64,000 nucleotides of DNA from positions 6,272,001 to 6,336,000 of the forward strand of contig CBDDPY010000002.1 in the NCBI GenBank assembly GCA_965232515.1, in the 5' to 3' direction. The notes beneath the pieces are model-generated. The model had not been told where the DNA came from and searched no databases. It saw nothing but the letters and a program-made list of their open reading frames with translations. The stretch comes from Alphaproteobacteria bacterium. Its GTDB lineage: Bacteria > Pseudomonadota > Alphaproteobacteria > GCA-2731375. The position numbers were made by a program, and so were the translations under genes. Numbering within the stretch: the first letter of the stretch is position 1; the number at the start of each line of letters is the position of its first letter. Of the stretch, positions 41,376 through 53,101 are shown one piece after another.

Positions 41376-41574
41376 GTCTGCGTCTTTCGCCTTTTCTCGC
41401 TCTCGATGTCGTCGAGCACACAGTCTAACCCCGTCGGCGGGCGGAGGCAGTCACGGTTGCGATTGTCGCGCCGGTTGGCGGTGTCGCCACTTTCTGCTGA
41501 TATAGGCCGAACATTCGATGACGGCGGAAGCGCGGCGCGCCCGCCACCCCCAACAACACTGCGGAGGCGAGGCG

Positions 41575-42183
41575 ATGAAACTCTATGACCTGAAGGCTGG
41601 CATGAACCCACGGCGGGTGCGGATCTTTCTTGCCGAAAAAGGCATCGAGGTGCCGAAGGTCGACGTCGACATGATGAAGGGCGAGAACGCGACACCTGCG
41701 TTCCTGGCGTTGAATCCACTCGGCAAGCTGCCGGTCCTGGAGCTGGACGACGGCACCATCCTGACCGAGTCCATGGCGATCTGCCGCTACTTCGAGGAGC
41801 TGCATCCCGAGCCGCCGCTGTTTGGTCGCGACGCGTTGGAACGCGCGAAGGTCGAGATGTGGAACCGGCGCATGGAGCTGGAGATCGCCTATCCGATGAC
41901 GCAAGTCTTCCAGCATGGCTACGAGTTCTGGAAGGACCGCATCACCCAGGTCCCCGCCTTCGGCGAGGTCTGCCGCGAAAAGCTGCGGGACCGCATGAAC
42001 TGGCTCGACGGCGAGTTGGCCGATCGGGATTACATCGTCGGCGACAGCTACACCGTCGCCGATATCACCGCGCAGTGCGGCCTGCTGATGGGCAAAGCCG
42101 TCGATATGCGGATCCCTGAAGCACTGGAGAACCTGTCGCGCTGGTTCGAAAGCGTTGTGTCGCGGCCAACCGCGCGCGCCTGA
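41575..42183 (+). CDS. Glutathione S-transferase family protein
   Basis: NPRRVRIFLAEKG, LNPLGKLPVL, LTESMAICRY, YTVADIT. Confidence 0.92.
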   Translation: MKLYDLKAGMNPRRVRIFLAEKGIEVPKVDVDMMKGENATPAFLALNPLGKLPVLELDDGTILTESMAICRYFEELHPEPPLFGRDALERAKVEMWNRRMELEIAYPMTQVFQHGYEFWKDRITQVPAFGEVCREKLRDRMNWLDGELADRDYIVGDSYTVADITAQCGLLMGKAVDMRIPEALENLSRWFESVVSRPTARA

Positions 42184-42186
42184 GCC

Positions 42187-42960
42187 ATGGCTTTCGATCA
42201 TCTCGGTGTGACGGTTGAGGACCGGATCGGCTGGCTGGAATACAACCGACCGCCGGTCAACGCGTTCACGATGGAGATGGTTCGCGAAGTCTCCGAGGCT
42301 TTGGACCAGTTGCTTGCCGATCCGCAAGTGCGGGTTCTCGTCATCGCCAGCGCTGTCGAAAGCTATTTCAGCGCCGGTGCCGATCTGACGGTCTTCGACG
42401 GCATTGGCGAGGCCGGCATGCGCGCCTGGGTCGAGGACGTGCATGGCATCGTCCGCAAGATGCGGGCGGCCGACAAGCCGCTGCTGGCCGCGATCAACGG
42501 CACGGCGGTCGGCGGCGGGCTTGAGATGACGCTGCATTGCGACGTGCGGTTTGCCGCCGCCGACGCCCGCCTCGGCCAGCCCGAGATCAACATCGCCTTC
42601 ATCCCGCCGATCGGCGCCACCCAGGCGCTGGCGCGGCTAATCGGCCGGCCGCGGGCGATCCGTTACCTCTACGAGGGTCGCCTGCTGCCGGCCGCCGAAG
42701 CCCTCGACATCGGGCTGGTCGATGTCGTCGTGCCGCCGGACCAGTTGCGGGCGGAGGTGCGCGCCTACGCGCTCGATCTGGCGGCCAAGCCGGCGGGCGC
42801 GCTGGCCGCGATCCGACGCACCATCACCGAAGGCGGTGGCAGGACATTCGACGAGGGCTTGGCGATGGAGGCGGAGGCCGTCGTGGCCCTCGCCGCCCAT
42901 CCCGATTTCGCCGAGGGCGTGCGCGCCTTCCTCGAAAAGCGCAAACCCAACTGGTCCTGA
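42187..42960 (+). CDS. Enoyl-CoA hydratase/isomerase family protein
   Basis: NRPPVNA, FSAGADL, AAINGTAVGGGLE, GQPEI, EGVRAFLEKR. Confidence 0.92.
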   Translation: MAFDHLGVTVEDRIGWLEYNRPPVNAFTMEMVREVSEALDQLLADPQVRVLVIASAVESYFSAGADLTVFDGIGEAGMRAWVEDVHGIVRKMRAADKPLLAAINGTAVGGGLEMTLHCDVRFAAADARLGQPEINIAFIPPIGATQALARLIGRPRAIRYLYEGRLLPAAEALDIGLVDVVVPPDQLRAEVRAYALDLAAKPAGALAAIRRTITEGGGRTFDEGLAMEAEAVVALAAHPDFAEGVRAFLEKRKPNWS

Positions 42961-42969
42961 TCGACGCGG

Positions 42970-44076
42970 CTATCGCTGCAGCGCCGAGTGGAAGCGGTCG
43001 ATCCCAAGGTCCTGCCGCAATTCCACGGTGTCCGCCGCCTTGGCGTCCTCCAACGGGATGCCGGTCGAGTCCGCGACCCGATCGATGGCGTTGAACAGGC
43101 CGGCGACGGCGGCCGCATCCACCAGCGCGTCGTCGCCGATTTGCTGCCGGATGCGGTCGCGCAGCTCGGCCAGGGCTTGATCGTTGTCACCGATCGCGGC
43201 TTCGGCAAAGGCCGTCAGCAGGGCGCCGTGGGCGATCCCGCCGTCGCCTGCGGCTTCGCCCGTCACGGCCTGCAGGTCCAGTTCGTCACCAGTATGAGCG
43301 CTGCTCGCACGGAGCAACTGAGCATGACTGGTGGTTCAATAGACGCAGCCGTTGAGGGCCGATACCCGGCCGGCGATCAGCTCGATCTGCGCATGATCGA
43401 TGGCCCGGAACTCGCGGTCGAAGTCGCGCATGGCTGCGCCCGGCAGATACTGGGTTTCGACGATATCGAAAAAACCGCGCACCTCGTCGGGCACCAGGCT
43501 AAGGGCGCGCCGGATGTGGGCGCCTGTGGTGCCGCCGTAGAGATCCGCCTCGGCGTCGCCGGCGTCCTCCGGCGCGATCCACGGCACCCAGGCGGGGCCC
43601 GGTTTGGCGCCGGCGGGCCGATAATTGGTCGGCGCGCCGTCCATGGGTTCGGGCAACGGCAGCGGTTCGACACCGATGCCTCGGGCAAAGGTGTCCACGG
43701 CGACGATGTTGGCCAGTACGCCGATGATCTCGACATACTGCCCATCGCTCAGGCCATCGGCCCGAACACTGTCGAACCAGCGCCGGGTCAGCCGGCCCGG
43801 GTCCGTCCGGACTCGATGGATGACCTCGACAATCGGGGCGCCGAGAACGCCCAGGCTTTGGTGTTCGCCATCGATGGCATAGGGCGACAGCGCGGCTTTC
43901 CGTTCCCGGCAAAGCGGGCAGGCGGTGGCGTTGCGGGCCTCGGCCGCGATCGCCACCCGCTCGGCGCCGGTGAACCAGGCACCGGGCCTGGCCAGGCGAT
44001 GCCAGGCGCGCGTATGGGCCGCAGTCAGGTCGGCCCGCACCGCGAATGGCGCGGTTTCATAGTTAATTTCTGTCAT
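42970..44076 (-). CDS. AhpD-related (seleno)protein, 368 aa with in-frame UGA at codon 247 (43338-43336)
   Basis: ORFs 43336-44100 and 42970-43317 are in one frame separated only by TGA; read-through gives QIELIAGRVSALNGCVY-U-TTSH, the AhpD CxxCxxxH motif; SECIS-like hairpin follows. Confidence 0.8.
43287..43335 (-). promoter_or_regulatory. Bacterial SECIS-like stem-loop
   Basis: 3' of UGA: lower stem CACCAGT/ACTGGTG plus ATG/CAT, upper stem GTTGCTC/GAGCAGC, loop CGTGC starting 24 nt after UGA. Confidence 0.7.
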
Positions 44077-44284
44077 TACGGATCCTCTCCTCGTGCCCAA
44101 AGCCTAGGGCAGACCAGTGGCCAGTTCGAGCGGAAATCGAGCCCGGCGGCGGGCGTGACGCCAGGACGATCGCGAACGGTCGCAAACGGATTAGTCAATG
44201 TCGCTCGAAAGCCAGTTGCGGCCGGCGGTCGGGCGCAACGTGGGCGTCGAAAATCGGTGTTCCCCTGGCAGAGGATCTTGGGTG

Positions 44285-45631
44285 ATGCTGAAAGCACAAG
44301 CGACCAATGGCGCCGCCGGACCGCGCCACGTTAACTTTCAAAACAGCGTTGATCAGAGCGATCGCAAGGTACCGATAAACCTGCGGCAGACCGGACCGAC
44401 CGCGGTCGAGATGCTGATCTCGACGCGGGTGCGGAAGTCGCCTTATTGGCATCTGTCGATGGAAGCCGGCTGCTGGCGCTGCACGGTCTACAACCGGATT
44501 TATCATCCGCGCGGCTATGTGAAGCCGGAGGATGGCGGTGCGGCCGTGGAGCACGACTCGCTGGTGAACGACGTCACTCTATGGAACGTCGCCGTCGAGC
44601 GTCAGATCCAGGTCATCGGTCCCGACGCCGAAGCGTTCGTCAACTTCGTGATCACCCGCGACGCCACCCGCATCGAGCCGATGAAAGGCAAATACGTCAT
44701 TCTCTGCAACGAGAAGGGTGGCATCCTTAACGATCCGGTGCTGCTGCGTCTGTCCGAAGATGAGTTCTGGTTCTCGATCTCGGACTCAGACCTGATGCTG
44801 TGGCTGCAGGGCGTGAATGTCGGCAAGCGCTTCGACGTCGAGATCAACGAGATCGACGTCTGCCCGGTGCAGATCCAGGGGCCGAAGTCGGAAGACCTGA
44901 TGGCCGATCTGGTCGGCGAGACCGTCCGCGAGCTGCCGAGCTACGGCATGATGCGGGCGCAGGTCGGCGGTCGCGACGTGGTCATCTCGCAGACCGGCTT
45001 TTCCGGCGAGAAGGGCTTCGAGATCTACCTCTACGATGCCACGCTGCATGCCGAGGACATGTGGTACGCGGTGCTGGCGGCGGGCAAGAAGCACAAGCTG
45101 CGGGTCATCGCGCCGGGCCATCAGCGGCGGATTGCCGCCGGCATCCTGTCCTGGGGCCAGGACATGGATTTCGAGACCGTGCCGTTCCAGGTCAATCTGG
45201 GTTACCAGGTGCCGCGCAAGAAGACGGCCGACTATATCGGTAAGGCGGCGTTGGAAAAGATGCGGGCCGACATCGAAGCCGGCAACCCGCCGTTCAAGAG
45301 CACGCTGGTCGGCATGGAACTGGGCGGCAAGCCGATCGACGAATATGCGCCGGACTTCTGGCTGATCTCCGGCCCCGACGGCGGCGACCCGTTCGGCTAT
45401 GTGACGTCGCCCTGGTACGCGCCCGAGCTCGGTACGAACATCGCCATGGGCTTCGTGCCGGTGGGCATGTCCGCGCTGGGGACCGAGCTCAAGGTCTGGC
45501 TGCCGGAGCAGTATCAGGAAACGGCCGGTCAGCCGGTCGCGGCCAAGGTGGTCGAGATGCCGTTCCGGCCGTCGGTCAATCCGAACGCGCGTGAAATCGC
45601 CAAGGCCGAAGGCCGCGACGCCGCGTTCTAA
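44285..45631 (+). CDS. GcvT-like aminomethyltransferase (THF-dependent demethylase, DmdA-related)
   Basis: RKSPY, TVYNR, VTLWNVAVERQI, GGILNDPVLLRL, IQGPKS, SQTGFSGEKGFEIY, RRIAAGILSWGQD; start uncertain. Confidence 0.85.
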   Translation: MLKAQATNGAAGPRHVNFQNSVDQSDRKVPINLRQTGPTAVEMLISTRVRKSPYWHLSMEAGCWRCTVYNRIYHPRGYVKPEDGGAAVEHDSLVNDVTLWNVAVERQIQVIGPDAEAFVNFVITRDATRIEPMKGKYVILCNEKGGILNDPVLLRLSEDEFWFSISDSDLMLWLQGVNVGKRFDVEINEIDVCPVQIQGPKSEDLMADLVGETVRELPSYGMMRAQVGGRDVVISQTGFSGEKGFEIYLYDATLHAEDMWYAVLAAGKKHKLRVIAPGHQRRIAAGILSWGQDMDFETVPFQVNLGYQVPRKKTADYIGKAALEKMRADIEAGNPPFKSTLVGMELGGKPIDEYAPDFWLISGPDGGDPFGYVTSPWYAPELGTNIAMGFVPVGMSALGTELKVWLPEQYQETAGQPVAAKVVEMPFRPSVNPNAREIAKAEGRDAAF

Positions 45632-45665
45632 CGGCACGGCCGGACGCCAAACGGAGGATTCGAAA

Positions 45666-46724
45666 ATGAGCGCCGATCAATCAACGGCCAAGCACGGCTT
45701 GCTGGAGCGCCTGGAAGCAGGTCCTGTTATCGTCGCCGAAGGTTATCTGTTCGAGTTCGAGCGTCGCGGGTACCTGCAGGCGGGCGCCTTCGTGCCCGAG
45801 GTGGTGCTGGAGCATCCCGAAGCCGTCCGGCAACTGCATATCGAGTTCGCCCGGGCCGGCAGCGACGTTATGGAAGCCTTCACCTACTATGCGCACCGCG
45901 AGAAGATGCGCCTGATCGGCCGCGAGGGGCAGCTCGAGGAGATCAACCGCAACGCCCTGCAAATCGCAAAGGGTGTCGCGGATGAGTACGGCACGTTGCT
46001 CGCCGGCAATATCTGCAACACCAATCTCTACGATCCGGCCGATCCCGAGTCGCACAAACAAGCCCGGGCGATCTTCGAAGAGCAGGTGCAGTGGGCGGTG
46101 GATGCCGGTGTCGATATGATCATCGGCGAGACCTATTCATGGGTCGGCGAGGCGATGATCGCGCTAGAGGTCATTAGTCAGACCGACCTGCCGTCCGTCA
46201 TGACATTGGCGCTGCACCGCGAGCCGACGACACGCGACGGCGTCGATCCAAATGACGGCTTCAAGCAGATGCACGACGCTGGCGCCGATGTCGTCGGCTA
46301 CAACTGTATTCGTGGGCCCTGGACCATGGTGCAGTTGCTGCCGGAACTGCGGCAGAAGGTGCCGGGCCATCTGGCGGCCTTGCCGGTTCCGTATCGCACG
46401 CTGCCCGCGCAGCCGACGTTCCAGTCGCTGCGGGATCCTGGATGCAACTCGATCCCGGACGACCGACCGTTCCCGGTCGCGCTCGATCCCTTCGTCTGCA
46501 ATCGATACGAAATGGCCGATTTCGCCAAGCAGGCCTACGAGGCCGGCGTGCACTATATCGGCGGTTGCTGCGGCACCGGTCCGCATCACGTGCGTGCGAT
46601 GGCCGAGGCGCTCGGCCGGCAGCCCGAAGCGAGCCGGTATTCGGTCGACATGTCGAAGCACGCTTACTTCGGCACCGAACAGAGCCTGAAAGCGACCAAT
46701 ACCGCGTACGCGGATCAGCTCTAG
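45666..46724 (+). CDS. Homocysteine S-methyltransferase, betaine-homocysteine methyltransferase (BHMT)-like
   Basis: ERRGYLQAG..VPEVVLEHPEAVRQLH.EFARAGSDV, Zn ligands GYNC and GGCCG, PFPVALDP. Confidence 0.88.
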   Translation: MSADQSTAKHGLLERLEAGPVIVAEGYLFEFERRGYLQAGAFVPEVVLEHPEAVRQLHIEFARAGSDVMEAFTYYAHREKMRLIGREGQLEEINRNALQIAKGVADEYGTLLAGNICNTNLYDPADPESHKQARAIFEEQVQWAVDAGVDMIIGETYSWVGEAMIALEVISQTDLPSVMTLALHREPTTRDGVDPNDGFKQMHDAGADVVGYNCIRGPWTMVQLLPELRQKVPGHLAALPVPYRTLPAQPTFQSLRDPGCNSIPDDRPFPVALDPFVCNRYEMADFAKQAYEAGVHYIGGCCGTGPHHVRAMAEALGRQPEASRYSVDMSKHAYFGTEQSLKATNTAYADQL

Positions 46725-47456: not shown

Positions 47457-47948
47457 TCAGGTCGTTGGTTTGGCGGTTAGGCCCATGACACGGCCGACCT
47501 GCGGTGGCGTCGGCAGGGTCGAATGCGCCGCCAGGACCTCCGCCAGCTTGTCCTGAACCGCGCCCGCCATCGGCGCGGCGCGGCGGGTCTCCCGACTGAC
47601 GTGCAGCGACATAAGCTCATTGGTTGCCGCCAGGTATCCCTCATCGGCGTGATGCATCTCGTGGAAGTAGTGAATGCGCTTCTCGTCGAAGGCCAGCAGC
47701 TGGGTCGTGAAACGCAGCGGATCGCCGGACATGACCTCGCGCCGGTAGGTGATGTGGCCTTCGAGCGAGAACGTCGAAACGCGATGTTCTTTCCGGTGCG
47801 CCCGGGTCAGACCGAGGTAATCCAGCCAGGCATCGGTGGCGAAATCGAAGACCAGCAGGTAATAGCCCATGTTCATATGCTGATTGTGGTCGATCCATTC
47901 GGGCCGAACTTCGTCGCGGTACAGATCGAACAAAACGCTTTCGTCCAT
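47457..47948 (-). CDS. Hotdog-fold acyl-CoA thioesterase
   Basis: VRPEWIDHNQHMNMGYYLLVFD.ATD, FSLEGHITY.REV, DEKRIH. Confidence 0.85.
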   Translation of the reverse strand: MDESVLFDLYRDEVRPEWIDHNQHMNMGYYLLVFDFATDAWLDYLGLTRAHRKEHRVSTFSLEGHITYRREVMSGDPLRFTTQLLAFDEKRIHYFHEMHHADEGYLAATNELMSLHVSRETRRAAPMAGAVQDKLAEVLAAHSTLPTPPQVGRVMGLTAKPTT

Positions 47949-48027
47949 GATCCGGTGTATCTTCCTTATCCAATGACGGCGGCAGTTTAGGCAAACGGTC
48001 ATCGGCAAACAAATGGGAGTAGATGGA

Positions 48028-48462
48028 ATGGTCTCGGCGAGTGATCTCATCGGCGCTTGGCGTCTGGCCGACTGGGCAATCGAATACTCGGATGGTCGGC
48101 CGACGACCTATCCCTTCGGCGAGAAACCCGACGGGCAGCTGATGTACTCCGCCGACGGGCGGATGTCGGGCACGATCTGCCGCCGCGAGCGCGAACGGAT
48201 GTCCAACGAGAACGTGCGGCAGGCGCCGATGGCCGAAAAGGCGGCCGCGTTCGACAGCTACTTTCAATACGCCGGCACCTGGCGGATCGACGGCGAGCAG
48301 GTCATCCATACGGTCGAGCAGTCGCTGAACCCGAACTTCGTCGGCAGCGATCAGATCCGCGACATGGACTATTCGGGCGATCAGCTCATTCTATCGGCGC
48401 GTATGCGGACCGCATCCGGCGCCGAGATGCACAACAAGCTGGTTTGGCGGCGCGTCGGCTAA
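48028..48462 (+). CDS. Lipocalin-like domain protein
   Basis: LIGAWRL, PFGEKPDGQLMYSADGRMS, YAGTW, SLNPN, LVWRR. Confidence 0.8.
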   Translation: MVSASDLIGAWRLADWAIEYSDGRPTTYPFGEKPDGQLMYSADGRMSGTICRRERERMSNENVRQAPMAEKAAAFDSYFQYAGTWRIDGEQVIHTVEQSLNPNFVGSDQIRDMDYSGDQLILSARMRTASGAEMHNKLVWRRVG

Positions 48463-49440
48463 TAACGGATCGTGCGCACGTCCTCATCGAAGCTTTTGAA
48501 CGACTGTCGCCACGTCTCCGACGGCCACCGGAATTCCACCTCGCCGGCCAAAGGATCATAGACTGCCGTGTAGAGTGTCCCGAGCCAGCCGTCGTAGTCG
48601 GTCTGGAACAACGGCGGTTCGGCAAATGCGGCGATAAGCCGATCCCGCGTCGTCGCCGGATCGGTGCGCAGATCGTGCAGACGGTCGCTGCGCTCCACGG
48701 TCCGGCTATGGGCGGCCATCTCTGGATGCTCGACGCGTTCCTGGTGGTTGGTGGTCACCGGCGTGCGGTCGACCGCGGCCTTCCGGTCCGGCCCCCAGGT
48801 AGACGACGGCATGATCGCCGGTTCGGTCGAGCAGCATGACGTTCTGCGACATGCAGACCGGTACACGACGTAACACCTCGATCGCGCTGGCGGTCGTTTC
48901 GCAGCACTCGAGCAGATAACGCAAGACGACCAGGATGCTGAAGCCGTCGCCGTGCACCGGTCGGCCGCCGAACGTCAACGCCACGGTCAGGCCGGCGTCG
49001 TTGATGCCGTCGAGCACGCCCCACGAGCCGTCCACAACGGCGATGACCCGGCGTCCCGTCCACCGGCTGTGGAGGATCGTGCCCTCGCAGAAGTTGGGGC
49101 TGAAATCGTAGTTTCGGATCAGCAGCGGTTGATCGCCCGGCGCCACGACGACGCTGCAGCCCGGCATTACCGGCGGCGGATTGTAGCCGCTCAGGTAACG
49201 GCCGGCGATGTTGTCGCCGCCGGCCAGCTCGCAAATCGCATTGTAGATCGGCAGCAGTTCCGGCATGTGGTGGCGCAAGGCCGCGATGCAGGTCGTCCGA
49301 TCTGGCCGTGCCTCTAGCCCCTGATGACAGAACCAGTCTCGGTAGAACGGCCAGGTCTCGTCAAACCGGCGGCGCCATTTGCCGCCGGGCAAGGGTTCGT
49401 CGATGGCTTCGAAACGGACGCTGTGTTTGGTACTGGTCAT
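48459..49440 (-). pseudogene. Peptidase C45 (Ntn-hydrolase) family gene with apparent single-base frameshift
   Basis: HMPEL, G|CS nucleophile site, IRNYDF, GVLDGINDAGL in one frame; TNHQ and GTLYTAVY in another; removing one base from the run at 48792-48796 joins them. Confidence 0.7.
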
Positions 49441-49618
49441 CGTCGGCTCGCCGCTTGCGTTGATGTCGCGGCCATTCTGGCAGGCGGGCAGGACTCGGGT
49501 TTGATCAGGATTGCGATATGCGGACCCCCGTGCCGATGCATAGCTGATTTGTCCGGATCAATTCTCGCCGTCGCTGCCGAGTTGCTATAGTAGGCGGCTG
49601 ATTTAATGGGAGGTGGGC

Positions 49619-52600
49619 ATGGCGTTGGCCCAGGTATCGCTCGACGACAAATACACGCTTTCGTCGGGCCGGGTGTTCCTGACCGGATTGCAAGCTTTGG
49701 TGCGGTTGCCGATGATGCAGCGGCAGCGCGACGACGCGGCGGGCTTGAACACGGCCGGCTTTATTTCGGGCTATCGTGGCTCGCCCTTGGGCGGCTACGA
49801 CGCCGCGCTGTGGCAAGCTTCGCGTTTCCTTAAGAGCAACCACATCCACTTCCAGCCGGGCGTGAACGAGGACCTGGCGGCGACATCGGTCTGGGGCAGT
49901 CAACAGATTAACCTCTGGCCCGGCGCCAAATACGACGGCGTCTTCGGCATCTGGTACGGCAAGGGCCCGGGCGTCGATCGCTCGGGCGATGTGCTGAAGC
50001 ACGGCAATGTGGCGGGCGCGGCGGCGAACGGCGGCGTGCTGGTCATCGCCGGCGATGACCACGGCTGCAAGTCCTCGACCCTGCCGCACCAGAGCGAACC
50101 TGCCTTCATGGCCGCCTCCATGCCGGTGATCAATCCGGCCGGCGTGCAGGAATACATCGACCTCGGCCTGTATGGCTTCGCGTTGTCGCGGTTCTCCGGC
50201 TGCTGGGTCGGCTTCAAGGCCGTCGGCGACACCGTGGAAAGTACGGCCGCGATTTCGATCGATCCGCTGCGCATCAAGGTTCAGCTGCCGGATGTCGAGA
50301 TGCCGCCCGGCGGGTTGAATATCCGCTATCCCGACGAGCCCATGGCGCAGGAAGACCGGCTGCTGAACTGGAAGCTGCCTGCCGCCAAGGCGTTTGTCCG
50401 GGCGAACGGCCTCGACCGCGTCGTGATCGATGCGCCCAAGCCCCGGCTCGGTATCGTCACCACCGGCAAGGCCTATCTCGACGTTCGCCAGGCGTTGGAT
50501 GAGCTGGGTATCGGTCCCGCCCAGGCCGCCGAGATGGGCCTGCGGCTCTACAAGGTGGCGATGACCTGGCCGCTGGAGCCCGAGGGCGCGCTCGCCTTCG
50601 CGAGCGGGCTAGAGGACATCCTGGTGGTCGAGGAGAAGCGGCCGATCCTGGAGGATCAGCTCAAGAAGCTGCTCTACAACCGCAGCGACATGCCGCGGAT
50701 GATCGTCGGCAAGCTGGACGAAGAGGGCCGGCCGCTGCTGCCGGAAGCCGGCGAGCTGACGCCGGGCATGGTGGCCGAGGCCATTGTCGGCCGGCTGCGG
50801 CGGTATCACGACCGCCCGGAATTCGAGCAGCGCCTGGCGCGCATGGAGCAGATCGAGAAGCAGGCCCGCGGCGCGGCGCCGTCGATGATGCGCACGCCCT
50901 ATTTCTGCTCCGGCTGTCCGCACAACACCTCGACCAACGTGCCGGAGGGCAGCCGAGCCATGGCAGGCATTGGCTGCCACGGCATGACGATCTGGATGCC
51001 TGAGCGCCGCACCCAGACCATCACCCATATGGGCGGCGAGGGCGTCAATTGGATCGGTCAGGCGCCCTTCACCTCAACGAAACATGTGTTTCAGAACCTG
51101 GGCGACGGCACCTATTTCCATTCCGGCCTGATGGCAATCCGCGCCGCCGCCGCGGCCGGCGTCAACATCACCTACAAGATCCTCTACAACGACGCCGTCG
51201 CCATGACCGGCGGCCAGCCGGTCGAAGGCAGCATCACACCGGACGAGATCAGCCGGCAGGTCGCCGCCGAGGGCGTATCGAAGGTCGTCGTGGTCAGCGA
51301 CGAGCCGGACAAGTATCCGGTTGGCACCAACTGGGCGTCCGGCGTCACGGTCTGGCATCGCGACGATCTGGACAGCGTGCAGCGCGATCTGCGCGAGACG
51401 CCCGGCGTGACCGTTCTGATCTACGATCAGACCTGCGCGGCAGAGAAACGTCGCCGCCGCAAGCGCGGCACCTTTCCCGATCCTGACAAGCGAGTGTTCA
51501 TTAACGATCTGGTCTGCGAGGGCTGCGGCGACTGCTCGGTCAAGTCGAACTGCGTCTCGGTGCAGCCGCTGGATACGGAATGGGGCCGCAAGCGGCAGAT
51601 AGACCAATCCAATTGCAACAAGGACTTCTCCTGCGTCAAAGGCTTCTGTCCCAGCTTCGTCACGGTGCATGGCGGCAAGCCGCGTCGCGCCAAATCCGCT
51701 GGCCCGGCGACCGTCGCCGACGACCTGTTTGCCGACCTGCCGATGCCGGCGGTGCCGCCGGCGAGCGAGCCTTACGGCATCCTGGTCACCGGCATCGGCG
51801 GCACGGGCGTCGTCACCATCGGCGCGCTGTTGGGGATGGCGGCGCATATCGAAGGCAAAGGCGTCTCGGTGCTTGATATGGCCGGCCTCGCTCAGAAGAA
51901 CGGCGCCGTCACCAGCCATATCCGCATCGCCGACGACCCCGACGATCTGCATGCCGTGCGCATTGCCGCGGGCGGCGCGCAGCTGCTGCTGGGTTGCGAC
52001 ATCGTTGTCGCCGCCGGGCCGGACGCCCGTGCGCGCATTAACGAAGGCGTCACCAGCGCCGTCGTGAACAGCCACGTGGTGCCGACGGCGTCCTTCGTCG
52101 GCAATGCCGACCAGGACATGTCGGCCCGGCTGATGATCGACCTGTTGCGAGACGCCACGGGCGAGCAACGCAGCCATTTCGTTAACGCCACGCGCCTTGC
52201 GACGGCGCTGCTGGGCGACTCCATCGCCACCAACCTTTTCATGCTGGGCTATGCCTTCCAGAAGGGTCTGGTGCCGCTGAGCGCGGACGCCATCATGCAG
52301 GCGATCGAGCTCAACAATGTCGCCGTCGAGGCCAACAAGCGCGCCTTCGGCTGGGGTCGGCTGGCGGCGCACGATCTGCCGCGGGTCGAGGCGGCGGCCG
52401 GACCGACGGTTCGGGCGGCCGAGAGCCCGACCTTCGCGCGCACGTTGGACGAGATCGTCGCCAAGCGGGTGGCGTTCCTGACCGACTATCAGGATGCGGC
52501 CTATGCGCAGCGCTATGCCGCGTTTGTCGAACGCGTCGGCGCAGTCGAAGCTGAGCGCGCCAAGGGCCTGGACGGTCTCGCCGAGGCGGTGGCACGGAAT

Positions 52601-53101
52601 TTGTTCAAGCTCATGGCCTACAAGGACGAGTACGAAGTGGCGCGGCTCTACACCACGGGCGAATTCGCGGCCAAGCTGCGCCAGCAGTTCGAGGGCGACG
52701 TCAGGCTAACGTTCCACCTGGCCCCGCCGTTGATGACGAACCGGGACCCCGAGACCGGCGAATTGCAGAAGCGCGAATACGGCCCCTGGATCCTGACGGC
52801 CTTCAAGTTCCTGGCGAAGCTCAAGGGCTTGCGCGGCGGCCCGTTCGATATCTTCGGTCGTACCGAGGAACGCCGGACAGAACGTCGGTTGATCGAAGAC
52901 TACATGACCACCGTCGAAACGCTGCTCGCGGGCCTGGACCACGACAACCACATGCTGGCGGTCAACATCGCCGCCTTGCCCGACAAGATCCGGGGCTTCG
53001 GCCATGTCAAGGAAAGGAACCTGCAGGCGGTCGAGGCCGAGGAGGCGCAGCTGCTGAACGAATTCAGGCAGCCGGCGGCACGGGCGAGCGCGGCGGAATA
53101 G
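49619..53101 (+). CDS. Indolepyruvate ferredoxin oxidoreductase family protein (fused alpha/beta)
   Basis: SGYRGSPLGG, NEDLAAT, YFCSGCPHN, GDGTYFHSG, NDAVAMTGGQ, CEGCGDC, GIGGTGV, MAYKDEYEVARL. Confidence 0.95.
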   Translation: MALAQVSLDDKYTLSSGRVFLTGLQALVRLPMMQRQRDDAAGLNTAGFISGYRGSPLGGYDAALWQASRFLKSNHIHFQPGVNEDLAATSVWGSQQINLWPGAKYDGVFGIWYGKGPGVDRSGDVLKHGNVAGAAANGGVLVIAGDDHGCKSSTLPHQSEPAFMAASMPVINPAGVQEYIDLGLYGFALSRFSGCWVGFKAVGDTVESTAAISIDPLRIKVQLPDVEMPPGGLNIRYPDEPMAQEDRLLNWKLPAAKAFVRANGLDRVVIDAPKPRLGIVTTGKAYLDVRQALDELGIGPAQAAEMGLRLYKVAMTWPLEPEGALAFASGLEDILVVEEKRPILEDQLKKLLYNRSDMPRMIVGKLDEEGRPLLPEAGELTPGMVAEAIVGRLRRYHDRPEFEQRLARMEQIEKQARGAAPSMMRTPYFCSGCPHNTSTNVPEGSRAMAGIGCHGMTIWMPERRTQTITHMGGEGVNWIGQAPFTSTKHVFQNLGDGTYFHSGLMAIRAAAAAGVNITYKILYNDAVAMTGGQPVEGSITPDEISRQVAAEGVSKVVVVSDEPDKYPVGTNWASGVTVWHRDDLDSVQRDLRETPGVTVLIYDQTCAAEKRRRRKRGTFPDPDKRVFINDLVCEGCGDCSVKSNCVSVQPLDTEWGRKRQIDQSNCNKDFSCVKGFCPSFVTVHGGKPRRAKSAGPATVADDLFADLPMPAVPPASEPYGILVTGIGGTGVVTIGALLGMAAHIEGKGVSVLDMAGLAQKNGAVTSHIRIADDPDDLHAVRIAAGGAQLLLGCDIVVAAGPDARARINEGVTSAVVNSHVVPTASFVGNADQDMSARLMIDLLRDATGEQRSHFVNATRLATALLGDSIATNLFMLGYAFQKGLVPLSADAIMQAIELNNVAVEANKRAFGWGRLAAHDLPRVEAAAGPTVRAAESPTFARTLDEIVAKRVAFLTDYQDAAYAQRYAAFVERVGAVEAERAKGLDGLAEAVARNLFKLMAYKDEYEVARLYTTGEFAAKLRQQFEGDVRLTFHLAPPLMTNRDPETGELQKREYGPWILTAFKFLAKLKGLRGGPFDIFGRTEERRTERRLIEDYMTTVETLLAGLDHDNHMLAVNIAALPDKIRGFGHVKERNLQAVEAEEAQLLNEFRQPAARASAAE

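Follow-up and report, generated by a model that had tools for sequence, protein, structure and literature searches.

The interval 42970..44076 on the minus strand of the window, the 64,000-nucleotide stretch of alphaproteobacterial DNA that was analysed, is very probably a single gene whose product, a selenoprotein of 368 residues with the motif C-x-Y-U-T, belongs to the curated family NF041238. The gene is a genuine member of an already known selenoprotein family, known since 2005. Specifically, according to the table of a 2026 review (PMC13188914), NF041238 is the family called 'hypothetical protein 1' in the Sargasso Sea selenoproteome of 2005 (PMC1088965), and the 2005 paper describes a conserved CXXU and SECIS-like stem-loops in that family. 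The window gene shares with it the C-x-Y-U-T motif, the Sec/Cys column and a SECIS-like stem-loop 3' of the UGA, and nothing essential differs.

An earlier note, made from the sequence, had called the gene hidden. It is indeed split by naive ORF calling, but the family itself is curated and published, and nothing here should surprise a selenoprotein specialist. In the annotation, one selenoprotein gene with Sec at residue 247 should replace the two ORFs. The features of the gene are collected in Table 1.

Table 1. Features of the selenoprotein gene, in window coordinates
Feature	Position	Strand	Details or basis
Complete selenoprotein CDS	42970..44076	(-)	368 codons + TAG; ATG 44076..44074, TAG 42972..42970
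Shine-Dalgarno-like GGAGAGGA	44083..44090	(-)	6 nt 5' of ATG 44076; putative function
N-terminal helical half, ~residues 13-135	43672..44040	(-)	Probably a second, divergent AhpD-like fold; predicted models
N-terminal C53-P-L-C56 motif	43909..43920	(-)	Family alignment rows
C-terminal AhpD/CMD-fold half with CxxU, ~residues 185-350	43027..43524	(-)	Pfam and structure matches
Active-site stretch	43324..43383	(-)	E232 43381..43383; C244-V-Y-U247 43336..43347; H251 43324..43326
In-frame UGA = U247	43336..43338	(-)	TGA=U translation and homologue column
UGA and whole two-stem hairpin of the window copy, RNA positions 1-52	43287..43338	(-)	MFE fold
Conserved SECIS-type apical stem-loop, GUUGCUC/GAGCAGC	43300..43318	(-)	Loop CGUGC 43307..43311

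Reading frame and family assignment

Calling with translation table 11 yields two ORFs, one of 254 residues (43336..44100, minus strand) and one of 115 residues with a TTG start (42970..43317, minus strand). The minus-strand codons AAC GGC TGC GTC TAT TGA ACC ACC AGT CAT read N-G-C-V-Y-UGA-T-T-S-H. When TGA is translated as U, the frame runs from ATG 44076 to TAG 42970 and gives 368 residues, in which U247 is followed by 121 residues. The reading of the earlier note, with 121 open codons after the UGA and a TTG-start downstream ORF devoid of a Shine-Dalgarno sequence, agrees with the sequence; on inspection by eye, no GGAG-like Shine-Dalgarno motif was seen before the TTG of the 115-residue ORF. 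A promoter scan returned 0 promoter-like sites, and a terminator scan returned one terminator-like site within the gene (43494..43479), which is at chance level (0.7 expected).

The read-through protein matches NCBIfam NF041238.1 (AhpD_rel_CFYUT) with 503.7 bits (E 3.1e-151), far above the curated cut-off of 175 bits. The match is end to end, residues 13-364 of the protein aligning with model positions 1-357 of 357. The part upstream of the UGA matches model positions 1-238 (333.9 bits) and the part downstream matches positions 240-357 (140.5 bits), in the same register. A search of the genome with the NF041238 profile gives 495 bits at the gene with 1 TGA read through, and the family motif is present as C-V-Y-U-T. 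The NCBIfam entry is named "alkylhydroperoxidase-related (seleno)protein", with the short name AhpD_rel_CFYUT; the family with a CFYUT motif that the earlier note mentioned does exist.

The protein falls below the cut-offs of two neighbouring families, with 19.4 bits against 191.95 for AhpD proper (TIGR00777) and 47 bits against 81.8 for the peroxidase-related family (TIGR01926), and so it does not belong to the TIGR01926 subfamily. The window copy is 44-62% identical in protein sequence to the 39 other family loci compared. One family copy is present in the window genome, and many relatives have 2-4 paralogues.

Conservation of the UGA codon and the selenocysteine machinery

Among relatives of the window genome, 50 matches above the cut-off were found in 24 of 41 genomes, and each contains an in-frame TGA (49 have one, 1 has two). 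All 40 of the 40 loci fetched from relatives have TGA in the same C-x-Y-U-T-x-S/T-H column. The same holds for 80 of 80 loci in the named genome collection, which have TGA at the U247 column, and in a class sample of 301 genomes all 20 matches contain one TGA. Cysteine occupies the U247 column in three full-length relatives, which are 49-52% identical to the window protein and are themselves NF041238 members (452, 436 and 388 bits); these are the 3 Cys forms among 120 relatives listed from a large public protein collection. The sequence is conserved on both sides of the UGA in homologues. Thus homologues with UGA or Cys at this site and conservation on either side, which the earlier note had proposed to look for, do occur.

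A FastTree phylogeny was built from 121 family proteins (123 minus 2 fragments of <300 aa). With midpoint rooting, the Cys forms do not group together but sit at two points among the Sec forms; the tree has no outgroup, so we make no claim on the direction of change.

Could the UGA be a true stop, giving a 246-residue protein and a separate 115-residue TTG ORF, or a pseudogene created by a nonsense mutation? Table 11 calls exactly those two ORFs, and 117 of the 120 best relatives listed are deposited as ~245-residue fragments cut at the UGA, mostly unnamed or labelled 'hypothetical protein'. However, TGA is kept at one column in 40/40 and 80/80 loci that are only 44-62% identical, which argues against a nonsense mutation; the downstream part is conserved and follows the NF041238 model in register at 240-357; invariant residues, H251 among them, and the AhpD-fold helices of the C terminus come after the UGA; the TTG has no Shine-Dalgarno motif by eye; and the genome has a complete Sec machinery (see below). 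A true stop is therefore very improbable, and the fragments among public relatives rather indicate that the family is systematically mis-called outside pipelines that use NF041238.

It is still less probable that the window genome has TGC or TGT here and that the TGA arose as an error of sequencing or assembly. One base change would give Cys, and the read data, from four runs, were compared as contigs only. A contig of run X1 (6707 letters) spans the entire gene and shows 0 differences, but the window sequence may itself derive from it; among the differences listed for the read-data contigs none lies at 43336..43338. TGA stands at this column in every homologous locus examined from other genomes. 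RNA-library contigs that are 95-99% alike match parts of the gene, a match that does not in itself demonstrate transcription.

Consistent with the selenoprotein assignment, the genes for Sec synthesis and insertion that the earlier note had suggested searching for (selA, selB, selC and selD) are all present in the window genome, which is 96% complete. Specifically, selA (575.7 bits), selB (429.2 bits) and selD (290.4 bits) each exceed their own cut-offs and have no internal stop; selD is present as a fusion. A tRNA-Sec is found by Rfam (71.6 bits) and is called tRNA-SeC with anticodon TCA by ARAGORN. All four, selA, selB, the selD fusion and tRNA-Sec, lie inside a ~11-kb cluster at C2:5873594-5884533.

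Matches to TIGR01591 and TIGR01553, sought as a Sec-type formate dehydrogenase in the window genome, have no internal stop, and this is nothing against the Sec trait. The same genome contains a second selenoprotein candidate, a SelW-like protein with one TGA.

The stem-loop downstream of the UGA

For the 69 nt that begin with the UGA, the MFE structure (-24.5 kcal/mol) is a two-stem hairpin with 7 bp in its upper stem and a 5-nt loop, CGUGC, that starts 24 nt past the UGA. Compared with shuffled sequences, the window hairpin has a z-score of -1.96, with 8 of 200 shuffles folding at least as well, which is modest when taken alone. The two-stem hairpin described in the earlier note, with a G-containing 5-nt loop at that distance, is thus present in the window copy, but only its upper stem-loop is conserved across the family.

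The core of the upper stem-loop, GCUC-CGUGN-GAGC, is invariant across 40 sequences and was found in 79 of 80 further loci of the named genome collection. Of 105 distinct sequences, 98-105 form the apical pairs 22-38 to 27-33. The share of paired cells is 83.5% for the named structure and does not exceed 51% once the partner is slid, and the covariation score is matched by 1 of 500 shuffles. Compensatory changes are few, with 2 pairs changed on both sides, a number that 233 of 500 shuffles reach. Codon choice within the stem is frozen as well: the Leu codon is CTC in 40/40 sequences (14.9% elsewhere in these genes), the Arg codon is CGT in 37/40 (9.9% elsewhere) and the Ser codon is AGC in 38/40 (34.8% elsewhere), counts that overstate independence in that the sequences are related and the stem partly overlaps the conserved peptide L-L-R-x-S-G.

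The lower stem was considered as a family-wide feature and rejected. It had seemed compensatory in 20-40 sequences (column 6-52 has CG in 28, GC in 3, UA in 1 and UG in 1). Among the 105 distinct sequences, 27-97 are paired, depending on the pair, with no fixed register, and therefore only the apical stem-loop is claimed.

The structure has the general form of a bacterial SECIS element, namely a stem-loop just 3' of the UGA with a G in its apical loop. bSECISearch reportedly uses a distance window of ~16-37 nt and a G within the first two loop positions. Rfam, searched over 42900-44200 with E values up to 10, gave six chance-level rows and no SECIS family. A conserved apical-loop guanosine is also noted in a figure legend of PMC1088965.

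By the known bacterial pathway, the UGA (43338..43336) would be decoded as selenocysteine by the organism's own SelA, SelB, SelD and tRNA-Sec, and the SECIS-type stem-loop, with its 5-nt loop CGUGC 24 nt past the UGA, would direct the decoding. Read-through by other means, in which tRNA-Trp or tRNA-Cys acts as a near-cognate tRNA or the stop codon is reassigned, would likewise produce a full-length protein. Cys suits the fold, as the 3 natural Cys forms indicate, and the Sec assignment here is predicted. On the other hand, genes next to it terminate normally and no sel gene contains an internal stop, showing that the genome is not recoded. The conserved stem-loop is as far from the UGA as SelB-dependent decoding would lead one to expect, the UGA falls on the second, redox-active Cys of a CxxC dyad, a classic place for Sec, and both the curated entry and the literature treat the family as selenoproteins. 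We thus regard non-Sec read-through as highly improbable, and treat residue 247 as selenocysteine below.

Active site, fold and possible function

In the C-terminal half, the family shows no variation at E232, C244, Y246, U247 or H251. The spacing from the Glu (+12, +14, +15 and +19) equals that of Glu74, Cys86, Tyr88, Cys89 and His93 of YP_296737.1, as given in PMC4674687. U247 aligns with the second Cys of CxxC(xxxH), the CVYCAVSH of 6k40 standing opposite CvYCttsH, and the placement of the UGA at the second Cys of the AhpD CxxCxxxH motif, put forward in the earlier note, is thereby confirmed. As judged from the sequence, the catalytic constellation of the AhpD family is complete in the C-terminal half, with Sec in place of the second Cys of CxxC.

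The fold of this half is supported by both profile and structure comparisons. Pfam CMD (PF02627) matches residues 225-261 with 27.7 bits against a cut-off of 23. The C-terminal half matches the profile of the AhpD structure 6k40 (E 3.1e-13), and also those of 3c1l, 2pfx, 2oyo and 2prr; in structure comparison it matches 2pfx (Z 12.9), 6ohi (Z 12.7), 3lvy (Z 12.5) and 1gu9 (Z 8.2).

The predicted model of the whole protein has a pLDDT of 92.7 and a pTM of 0.93, and its best structural match is Sestrin2, with Z 16.7 and rmsd 3.4 Å over 239 residues (model residues 1-341). For the N-terminal half, the models have pLDDT > 90. When this half is compared alone, AhpD/CMD structures take the first 7 places among 48,161 chains, with Z 4.8-7.2, and likewise all of the top Foldseek rows, with E 0.25-1. 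An hhalign comparison of the two halves places their motifs in register, although weakly (probability 6.8%, E 0.005). These comparisons point the same way, but every score for the N-terminal half stays below the caution level of its tool. Pfam at E up to 0.1 lists no family on the N-terminal half, and CMD is the sole family listed for the protein. The model resembles a Sestrin2-like tandem of two AhpD-type halves, in which the N-terminal half is probably a divergent second AhpD-like fold. This half contains the separate CPLC that the earlier note had pointed out, at residues 53-56; C53, L55 and C56 are present in all 39 family rows that have the column (one of 40 rows is gapped), and they are invariant in the 25-row alignment A3.

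The AhpD 'peroxidase-related' structures (6k40 of D. radiodurans, 2prr/YP_296737.1, 3c1l, 2pfx and 2oyo) share with the window protein the C-terminal fold, with Z up to 12.9, and the same Glu/Cys/Tyr/Cys/His constellation with identical spacing. These proteins are single-domain, of ~190 residues, and have CxxC, whereas the window protein has an extra N-terminal half with CxLC and uses Sec. M. tuberculosis AhpD (1gu9/1knc) shares the helix-turn-helix CxxC-type motif, and its fold matches with Z 8.2 over 138 residues (profile match to 1gu9, E 0.0082), but it is not an orthologue of the window gene. M. tuberculosis AhpD reduces the peroxiredoxin AhpC, and the mechanistic model given in PMC4674687 has a sulfenic/selenenic intermediate resolved by the neighbouring Cys.

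Marine-metagenome selenoproteins with CxxU on an AhpD-like fold, which the earlier note took as established, are in print (PMC1088965 and PMC2398784). Specifically, AhpD-like 1 (COG2128) and AhpD-like 2 (PF02627) are selenoprotein families described in PMC2398784 as abundant in marine samples. Both have CxxU on the AhpD/CMD fold, as the window protein does. They occupy rows apart from NF041238 in the 2026 review table (PMC13188914) and, as far as the tables show, are short single-domain forms.

Sestrin2 (5cuf) has two AhpD-like halves per chain, as the window protein probably does. The catalytic Cys125 of Sestrin2 is in its N-terminal half, whereas the dyad of the window protein is in the C-terminal half and contains Sec. 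Pfam at E up to 0.1 gives no Sestrin (PA26) match in the window protein. Bacterial 'Sestrin analogues' with two AhpD domains, for example E. coli YciW, are described in PMC11429811.

These comparisons suggest how the enzyme may work. The description of the product in the earlier note as a 368-residue Sec redox enzyme is supported by the family match, the Sec genes and the homologues. By family resemblance, the enzyme would most likely cycle between the selenol/thiol and a Cys244-Sec247 selenenylsulfide, with a hydroperoxide or an oxidised partner protein being reduced in the process. The invariant N-terminal CxLC is a candidate second redox or metal-binding centre. A Sestrin2-like two-domain model with a second conserved CxLC would offer a concrete hypothesis for biochemistry; a literature search for NF041238 found no experimental study of the family. 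That the family is a selenium-dependent bacterial counterpart of Sestrin, with the N-terminal CxLC acting as an intramolecular relay or metal site for Cys244-Sec247, is a speculative and rather unlikely extension of this model. In the same unlikely reading, the near-exclusive use of Sec could reflect a chemistry that Cys handles poorly, such as reductive dehalogenation as in Bmp8, rather than generic peroxide reduction. Bmp8, a CMD-fold debrominase that carries out reductive dehalogenation, is a structural match with Z 12.7.

The divergent methyl-transfer genes (GcvT/BHMT) reported in the earlier note are confirmed as genes for GcvT and a homocysteine-S-methyltransferase, and they adjoin the homologue in none of 19 loci (1.5-kb flanks). 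When HpcH, GST, ECH, GcvT, S-methyltransferase and 4HBT were sought in these flanks of the 19 homologous loci, only GST was found, at 2 loci. In the window, no ahpC neighbour was seen. A Pfam scan of 102 flank ORFs, the longer ones of 164, identified PBP upstream and SLT_2 downstream as syntenic within one genus; elsewhere the same ORFs include scattered GST, rhodanese, MsrA, Sir2, isochorismatase and others, with no family-wide partner.

In a phylum-wide sample, 0 of 400 other genomes have a match at E up to 1e-30, a weak result with 4 candidates scored per genome. Within the Alphaproteobacteria, the family has a wide distribution, with members in genomes of marine, soil and other origin.

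Family membership and reading frame

The minus-strand gene at 42970..44076 belongs to a selenoprotein family that is both curated and published. A plain ORF caller splits this gene, and the earlier note, in detecting it, correctly rediscovered a member of a known family. The note's reading, a 368-residue Sec enzyme, is borne out by the family match, the Sec machinery, the homologues and the stem-loop. Specifically, the read-through protein matches NF041238.1 (AhpD_rel_CFYUT), the NCBIfam equivalog model "alkylhydroperoxidase-related (seleno)protein", over model positions 1–357 of 357 with 503.7 bits (E 3.1e-151; curated cut-off 175 bits); the CFYUT family to which the note had pointed exists under this accession. 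The upstream table-11 piece covers model positions 1–238 (333.9 bits) and the downstream piece, in register with it, positions 240–357 (140.5 bits). In Pfam there is only a short match to CMD (PF02627; residues 225–261, 27.7 bits versus a cut-off of 23). Assignment to AhpD proper (TIGR00777, 19.4 bits versus a cut-off of 191.95) or to TIGR01926 (47 bits versus 81.8) was rejected.

With table 11 the region reads as two ORFs, and the break is a TGA at 43338..43336 within minus-strand AAC GGC TGC GTC TAT TGA ACC ACC AGT CAT. If TGA is read as U, the frame that opens at ATG 44076 and closes at TAG 42970 encodes 368 residues, with C-P-L-C at residues 53–56 and U247 followed by 121 residues. By eye, GGAGAGGA lies 6 nt upstream of the ATG, and no similar motif precedes the TTG of the downstream ORF. 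Every element that the note had described was found in the sequence, namely N-G-C-V-Y-stop-T-T-S-H with 121 open codons beyond the UGA, the separate N-terminal CPLC, and the downstream TTG start lacking a Shine-Dalgarno sequence. Among aligned contigs from four runs, one covers the whole gene (6707 letters, 0 differences) and may be the window's own source; the TGA position is free of differences among those listed. Contigs from RNA libraries overlap parts of the gene, which is not proof of transcription. Within the coding sequence, at 43479..43494 (-), there is one terminator-like hairpin followed by a T-run, which is not meaningful against the 0.7 expected by chance.

NF041238 is equated in a table of PMC13188914 with 'hypothetical protein 1' of the Sargasso Sea selenoproteome, which was described from four sequences with a conserved CXXU suggesting redox function; the paper reports no functional evidence for it (PMC1088965). 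Related short AhpD-like CxxU families rank among the most abundant marine selenoproteins (PMC2398784). In practice, the result corrects the annotation and offers a concrete hypothesis for biochemistry.

Coordinates of the two ORF pieces, neighbouring genes and other selenium-related genes
Feature	Location	Strand	Remarks
Upstream table-11 ORF	43336..44100	-	254 aa from first TTG; ATG at 44076
Downstream table-11 ORF	42970..43317	-	115 aa, TTG start
GcvT-family aminomethyltransferase gene	44198..45631	+	upstream, divergent
Homocysteine S-methyltransferase-family gene	45591..46724	+	upstream, divergent
Enoyl-CoA hydratase gene	42187..42960		downstream, convergent
GST gene	41518..42183		downstream, convergent
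4HBT thioesterase ORF	47457..48050	-	
AAT-family acyltransferase ORF	48706..49440	-	
POR + DUF6537 ORF	49613..53101	+	1162 residues
selA	within C2:5873594-5884533		575.7 bits, above cut-off, no internal stop
selB	within C2:5873594-5884533		429.2 bits, above cut-off, no internal stop
selD	within C2:5873594-5884533		290.4 bits, above cut-off, no internal stop
tRNA-Sec	within C2:5873594-5884533		Rfam 71.6 bits; ARAGORN tRNA-SeC, anticodon TCA
SelW-like CxxU gene	C2:4664906-4665109	+	TIGR02174 52.4 bits, above cut-off; one in-frame TGA

Homologues and the Sec column

Matches over the NF041238 cut-off occur in 24 of 41 related genomes, and all 50 carry an in-frame TGA (49 with one, one with two; counted from the table). 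The TGA falls in the same C-x-Y-U-T-x-S/T-H column in 40/40 loci fetched from related genomes, two unrelated regex matches (loci L055 and L061) being left out. An even sample of the class has the family in 14 of 301 genomes, each of the 20 matches with one TGA; a phylum sample, with four candidates scored per genome, has no further carriers among 400 genomes. A scan of a named genome collection found 237 relatives. The TGA is at the Sec column in all of the best 80, a set not fully independent of the 40 loci, since the source collections probably overlap (the 120 sequences comprise 105 distinct 60-mers). These 80 are almost all from alphaproteobacterial MAGs (Rhodospirillaceae, Defluviicoccus, Xanthobacteraceae, Stellaceae, Rhizobiaceae, Paracoccaceae) and include one Candidatus Sulfotelmatobacter. 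Many of the related genomes (G002-G024) hold 2–4 paralogues, all with TGA, in clades that share 44–54% identity with the window's copy; only one copy is present in the window's own genome.

A collection of 5.8 billion proteins contains 2426 matches at E up to 1e-20. Among the best 120, 117 have 233–264 residues (about 245), cover 64–67% of the query and end at the UGA; most are unnamed or 'hypothetical protein'. Gene callers systematically truncate the family in metagenome and MAG annotations. The remaining three are full length (352–434 aa, 49–52% identical), have Cys at the Sec column and are members at 452, 436 and 388 bits. In a FastTree phylogeny of 121 members (midpoint root, no outgroup) they are split between two positions among the Sec forms. 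Judged from these alignments, the column shows the classical Sec/Cys pairing and is flanked on either side by conserved sequence, as the note had anticipated for homologues.

Stem-loop and Sec machinery

The 69 nt from the UGA form a two-stem hairpin (-24.5 kcal/mol). Its upper stem is 7 bp long, and its loop, CGUGC, starts 24 nt past the UGA. The distance window of bSECISearch is reportedly 16–37 nt. No Rfam family matches the hairpin, and in this copy alone it is unremarkable against shuffles (z = -1.96; 8/200 fold equally well or better). Comparative support for the stem-loop is stronger than this single-sequence fold. Specifically, the core GCUC-CGUGN-GAGC is invariant in 40 aligned sequences, and 83.5% of cells are paired on the named structure versus 31–51% when the 3' partner is slid 1–3 columns. 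The covariation score is matched by 1/500 shuffles; both-side changes occur at only 2 pairs, not above shuffle level. The codons within the stem are frozen, with Leu CTC in 40/40 (14.9% elsewhere in the same genes), Arg CGT in 37/40 (9.9%) and Ser AGC in 38/40 (34.8%), in a comparison of mutually related sequences whose set starts at the preceding stop and contains a few non-coding codons.

Of 105 distinct sequences, 98–105 form each of the six apical pairs, and 27–97 form the lower stem in a fixed register. Because the lower stem varies in this register, the conserved element that we claim is the apical stem-loop, with the lower stem for this copy only; the note's two-stem hairpin stands here, loop distance included, and only its apical part extends to the family. 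A conserved guanosine in the apical loop is the rule for bacterial SECIS (PMC1088965, figure legend), and hypothetical protein 1 has a stem-loop similar to the bacterial SECIS (PMC1088965).

The window's own genome (7.39 Mb, 4 contigs, 96% complete) contains all four genes that the note had named for the Sec machinery, selA, selB, selC (tRNA-Sec) and selD. They lie in a cluster of ~11 kb (loci L001, L003, L011, L014), ~430 kb from the selenoprotein gene: selA adjoins selB, the tRNA-Sec gene is ~3.7 kb past selB, and selD is ~3 kb past the tRNA gene. At L011:1387-3711 (minus strand), the selD frame encodes a 774-residue fusion of Pyr_redox_2 (pyridine-nucleotide-disulfide oxidoreductase; residues 43–349) with AIRS/AIRS_C (residues 471–762), and is of the Ndh-SelD type known from marine metagenomes (PMC2398784). 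No internal stop interrupts the genome's matches to formate dehydrogenase alpha. The SelW-like gene is a second selenoprotein candidate.

Predicted fold, active site and genomic context

Among solved AhpD-family proteins, the family profile matches through its C-terminal half only, to 6k40 (E 3.1e-13), 3c1l, 2pfx, 2oyo and 2prr, and weakly to M. tuberculosis AhpD 1gu9 (E 0.0082). In 6k40 the residue opposite U247 is the second Cys of CVYCAVSH, the motif position to which the note had assigned the UGA. Throughout the family E232, C244, Y246, U247 and H251 are invariant, with the same spacing as Glu74, Cys86, Tyr88, Cys89 and His93 of YP_296737.1, which are named as catalytic dyad and proton relay in oxidoreductases of the AhpD family (PMC4674687). 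On the C-terminal half of the AlphaFold model (pLDDT 92.7, pTM 0.93, from 25 sequences), single-domain AhpD/CMD structures align with Z 12.9 (2pfx), 12.5 (3lvy) and 8.2 (1gu9), and the Bmp8 debrominase 6ohi with Z 12.7.

Over the whole chain, human Sestrin2 matches best (Z 16.7, rmsd 3.4 Å, 239 residues aligned, model residues 1–341). Sestrin2 consists of two AhpD-like halves (PMC4674687), and the same arrangement is likely in our model; bacterial two-AhpD-domain analogues include E. coli YciW (PMC11429811). For the N-terminal 160 residues folded alone (pLDDT 90.5), the seven best matches among 48,161 representative chains are all AhpD/CMD (Z 7.2–4.8, unrelated chains from Z 4.3), and so are the top Foldseek rows (E 0.25–1). 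Profile-profile comparison of the two halves places C-P-L-C in register with C-V-Y-U, weakly (probability 6.8%, E 0.005), and C53, L55 and C56 are conserved in 39/39 rows having the column. The N-terminal results are mutually consistent, each below the caution level, and the protein is likely to comprise two tandem AhpD folds. Three points may go slightly beyond the published accounts, or may already be on record there: the two-half model resembling Sestrin2, the invariant CxLC of the N-terminal half and the near-exclusive use of Sec.

The protein is predicted to be a thiol/selenol oxidoreductase. By analogy with AhpD, which cycles from sulfenic acid to disulfide (PMC4674687), catalysis would proceed through a Cys244-Sec247 selenenylsulfide, and the N-terminal CxLC could provide a further redox or metal centre.

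The divergent GcvT/BHMT genes of the note are present at 44198..46724 (+); they overlap by ~40 nt and look like a methyl-transfer pair. Beside homologues (19 loci, 1.5-kb flanks), none of the window's neighbours is conserved (GcvT 0/19, GST 2/19). In one genus (loci L024, L026, L027, L029, L031, L032, L034-L038, L040) the gene has on one side a divergent gene for a PBP/YbhB-like phosphatidylethanolamine-binding protein and, downstream, a lytic transglycosylase (SLT_2) gene; in other lineages it adjoins rhodanese (L033, L039, L041), GST (L023, L025) or MsrA (L028). The flanks scanned show no family-wide neighbour, and context therefore gives no substrate. Elsewhere in the window, the ORF that combines a POR domain (pyruvate ferredoxin/flavodoxin oxidoreductase) with DUF6537 lies near the 4HBT thioesterase and AAT-family acyltransferase ORFs.
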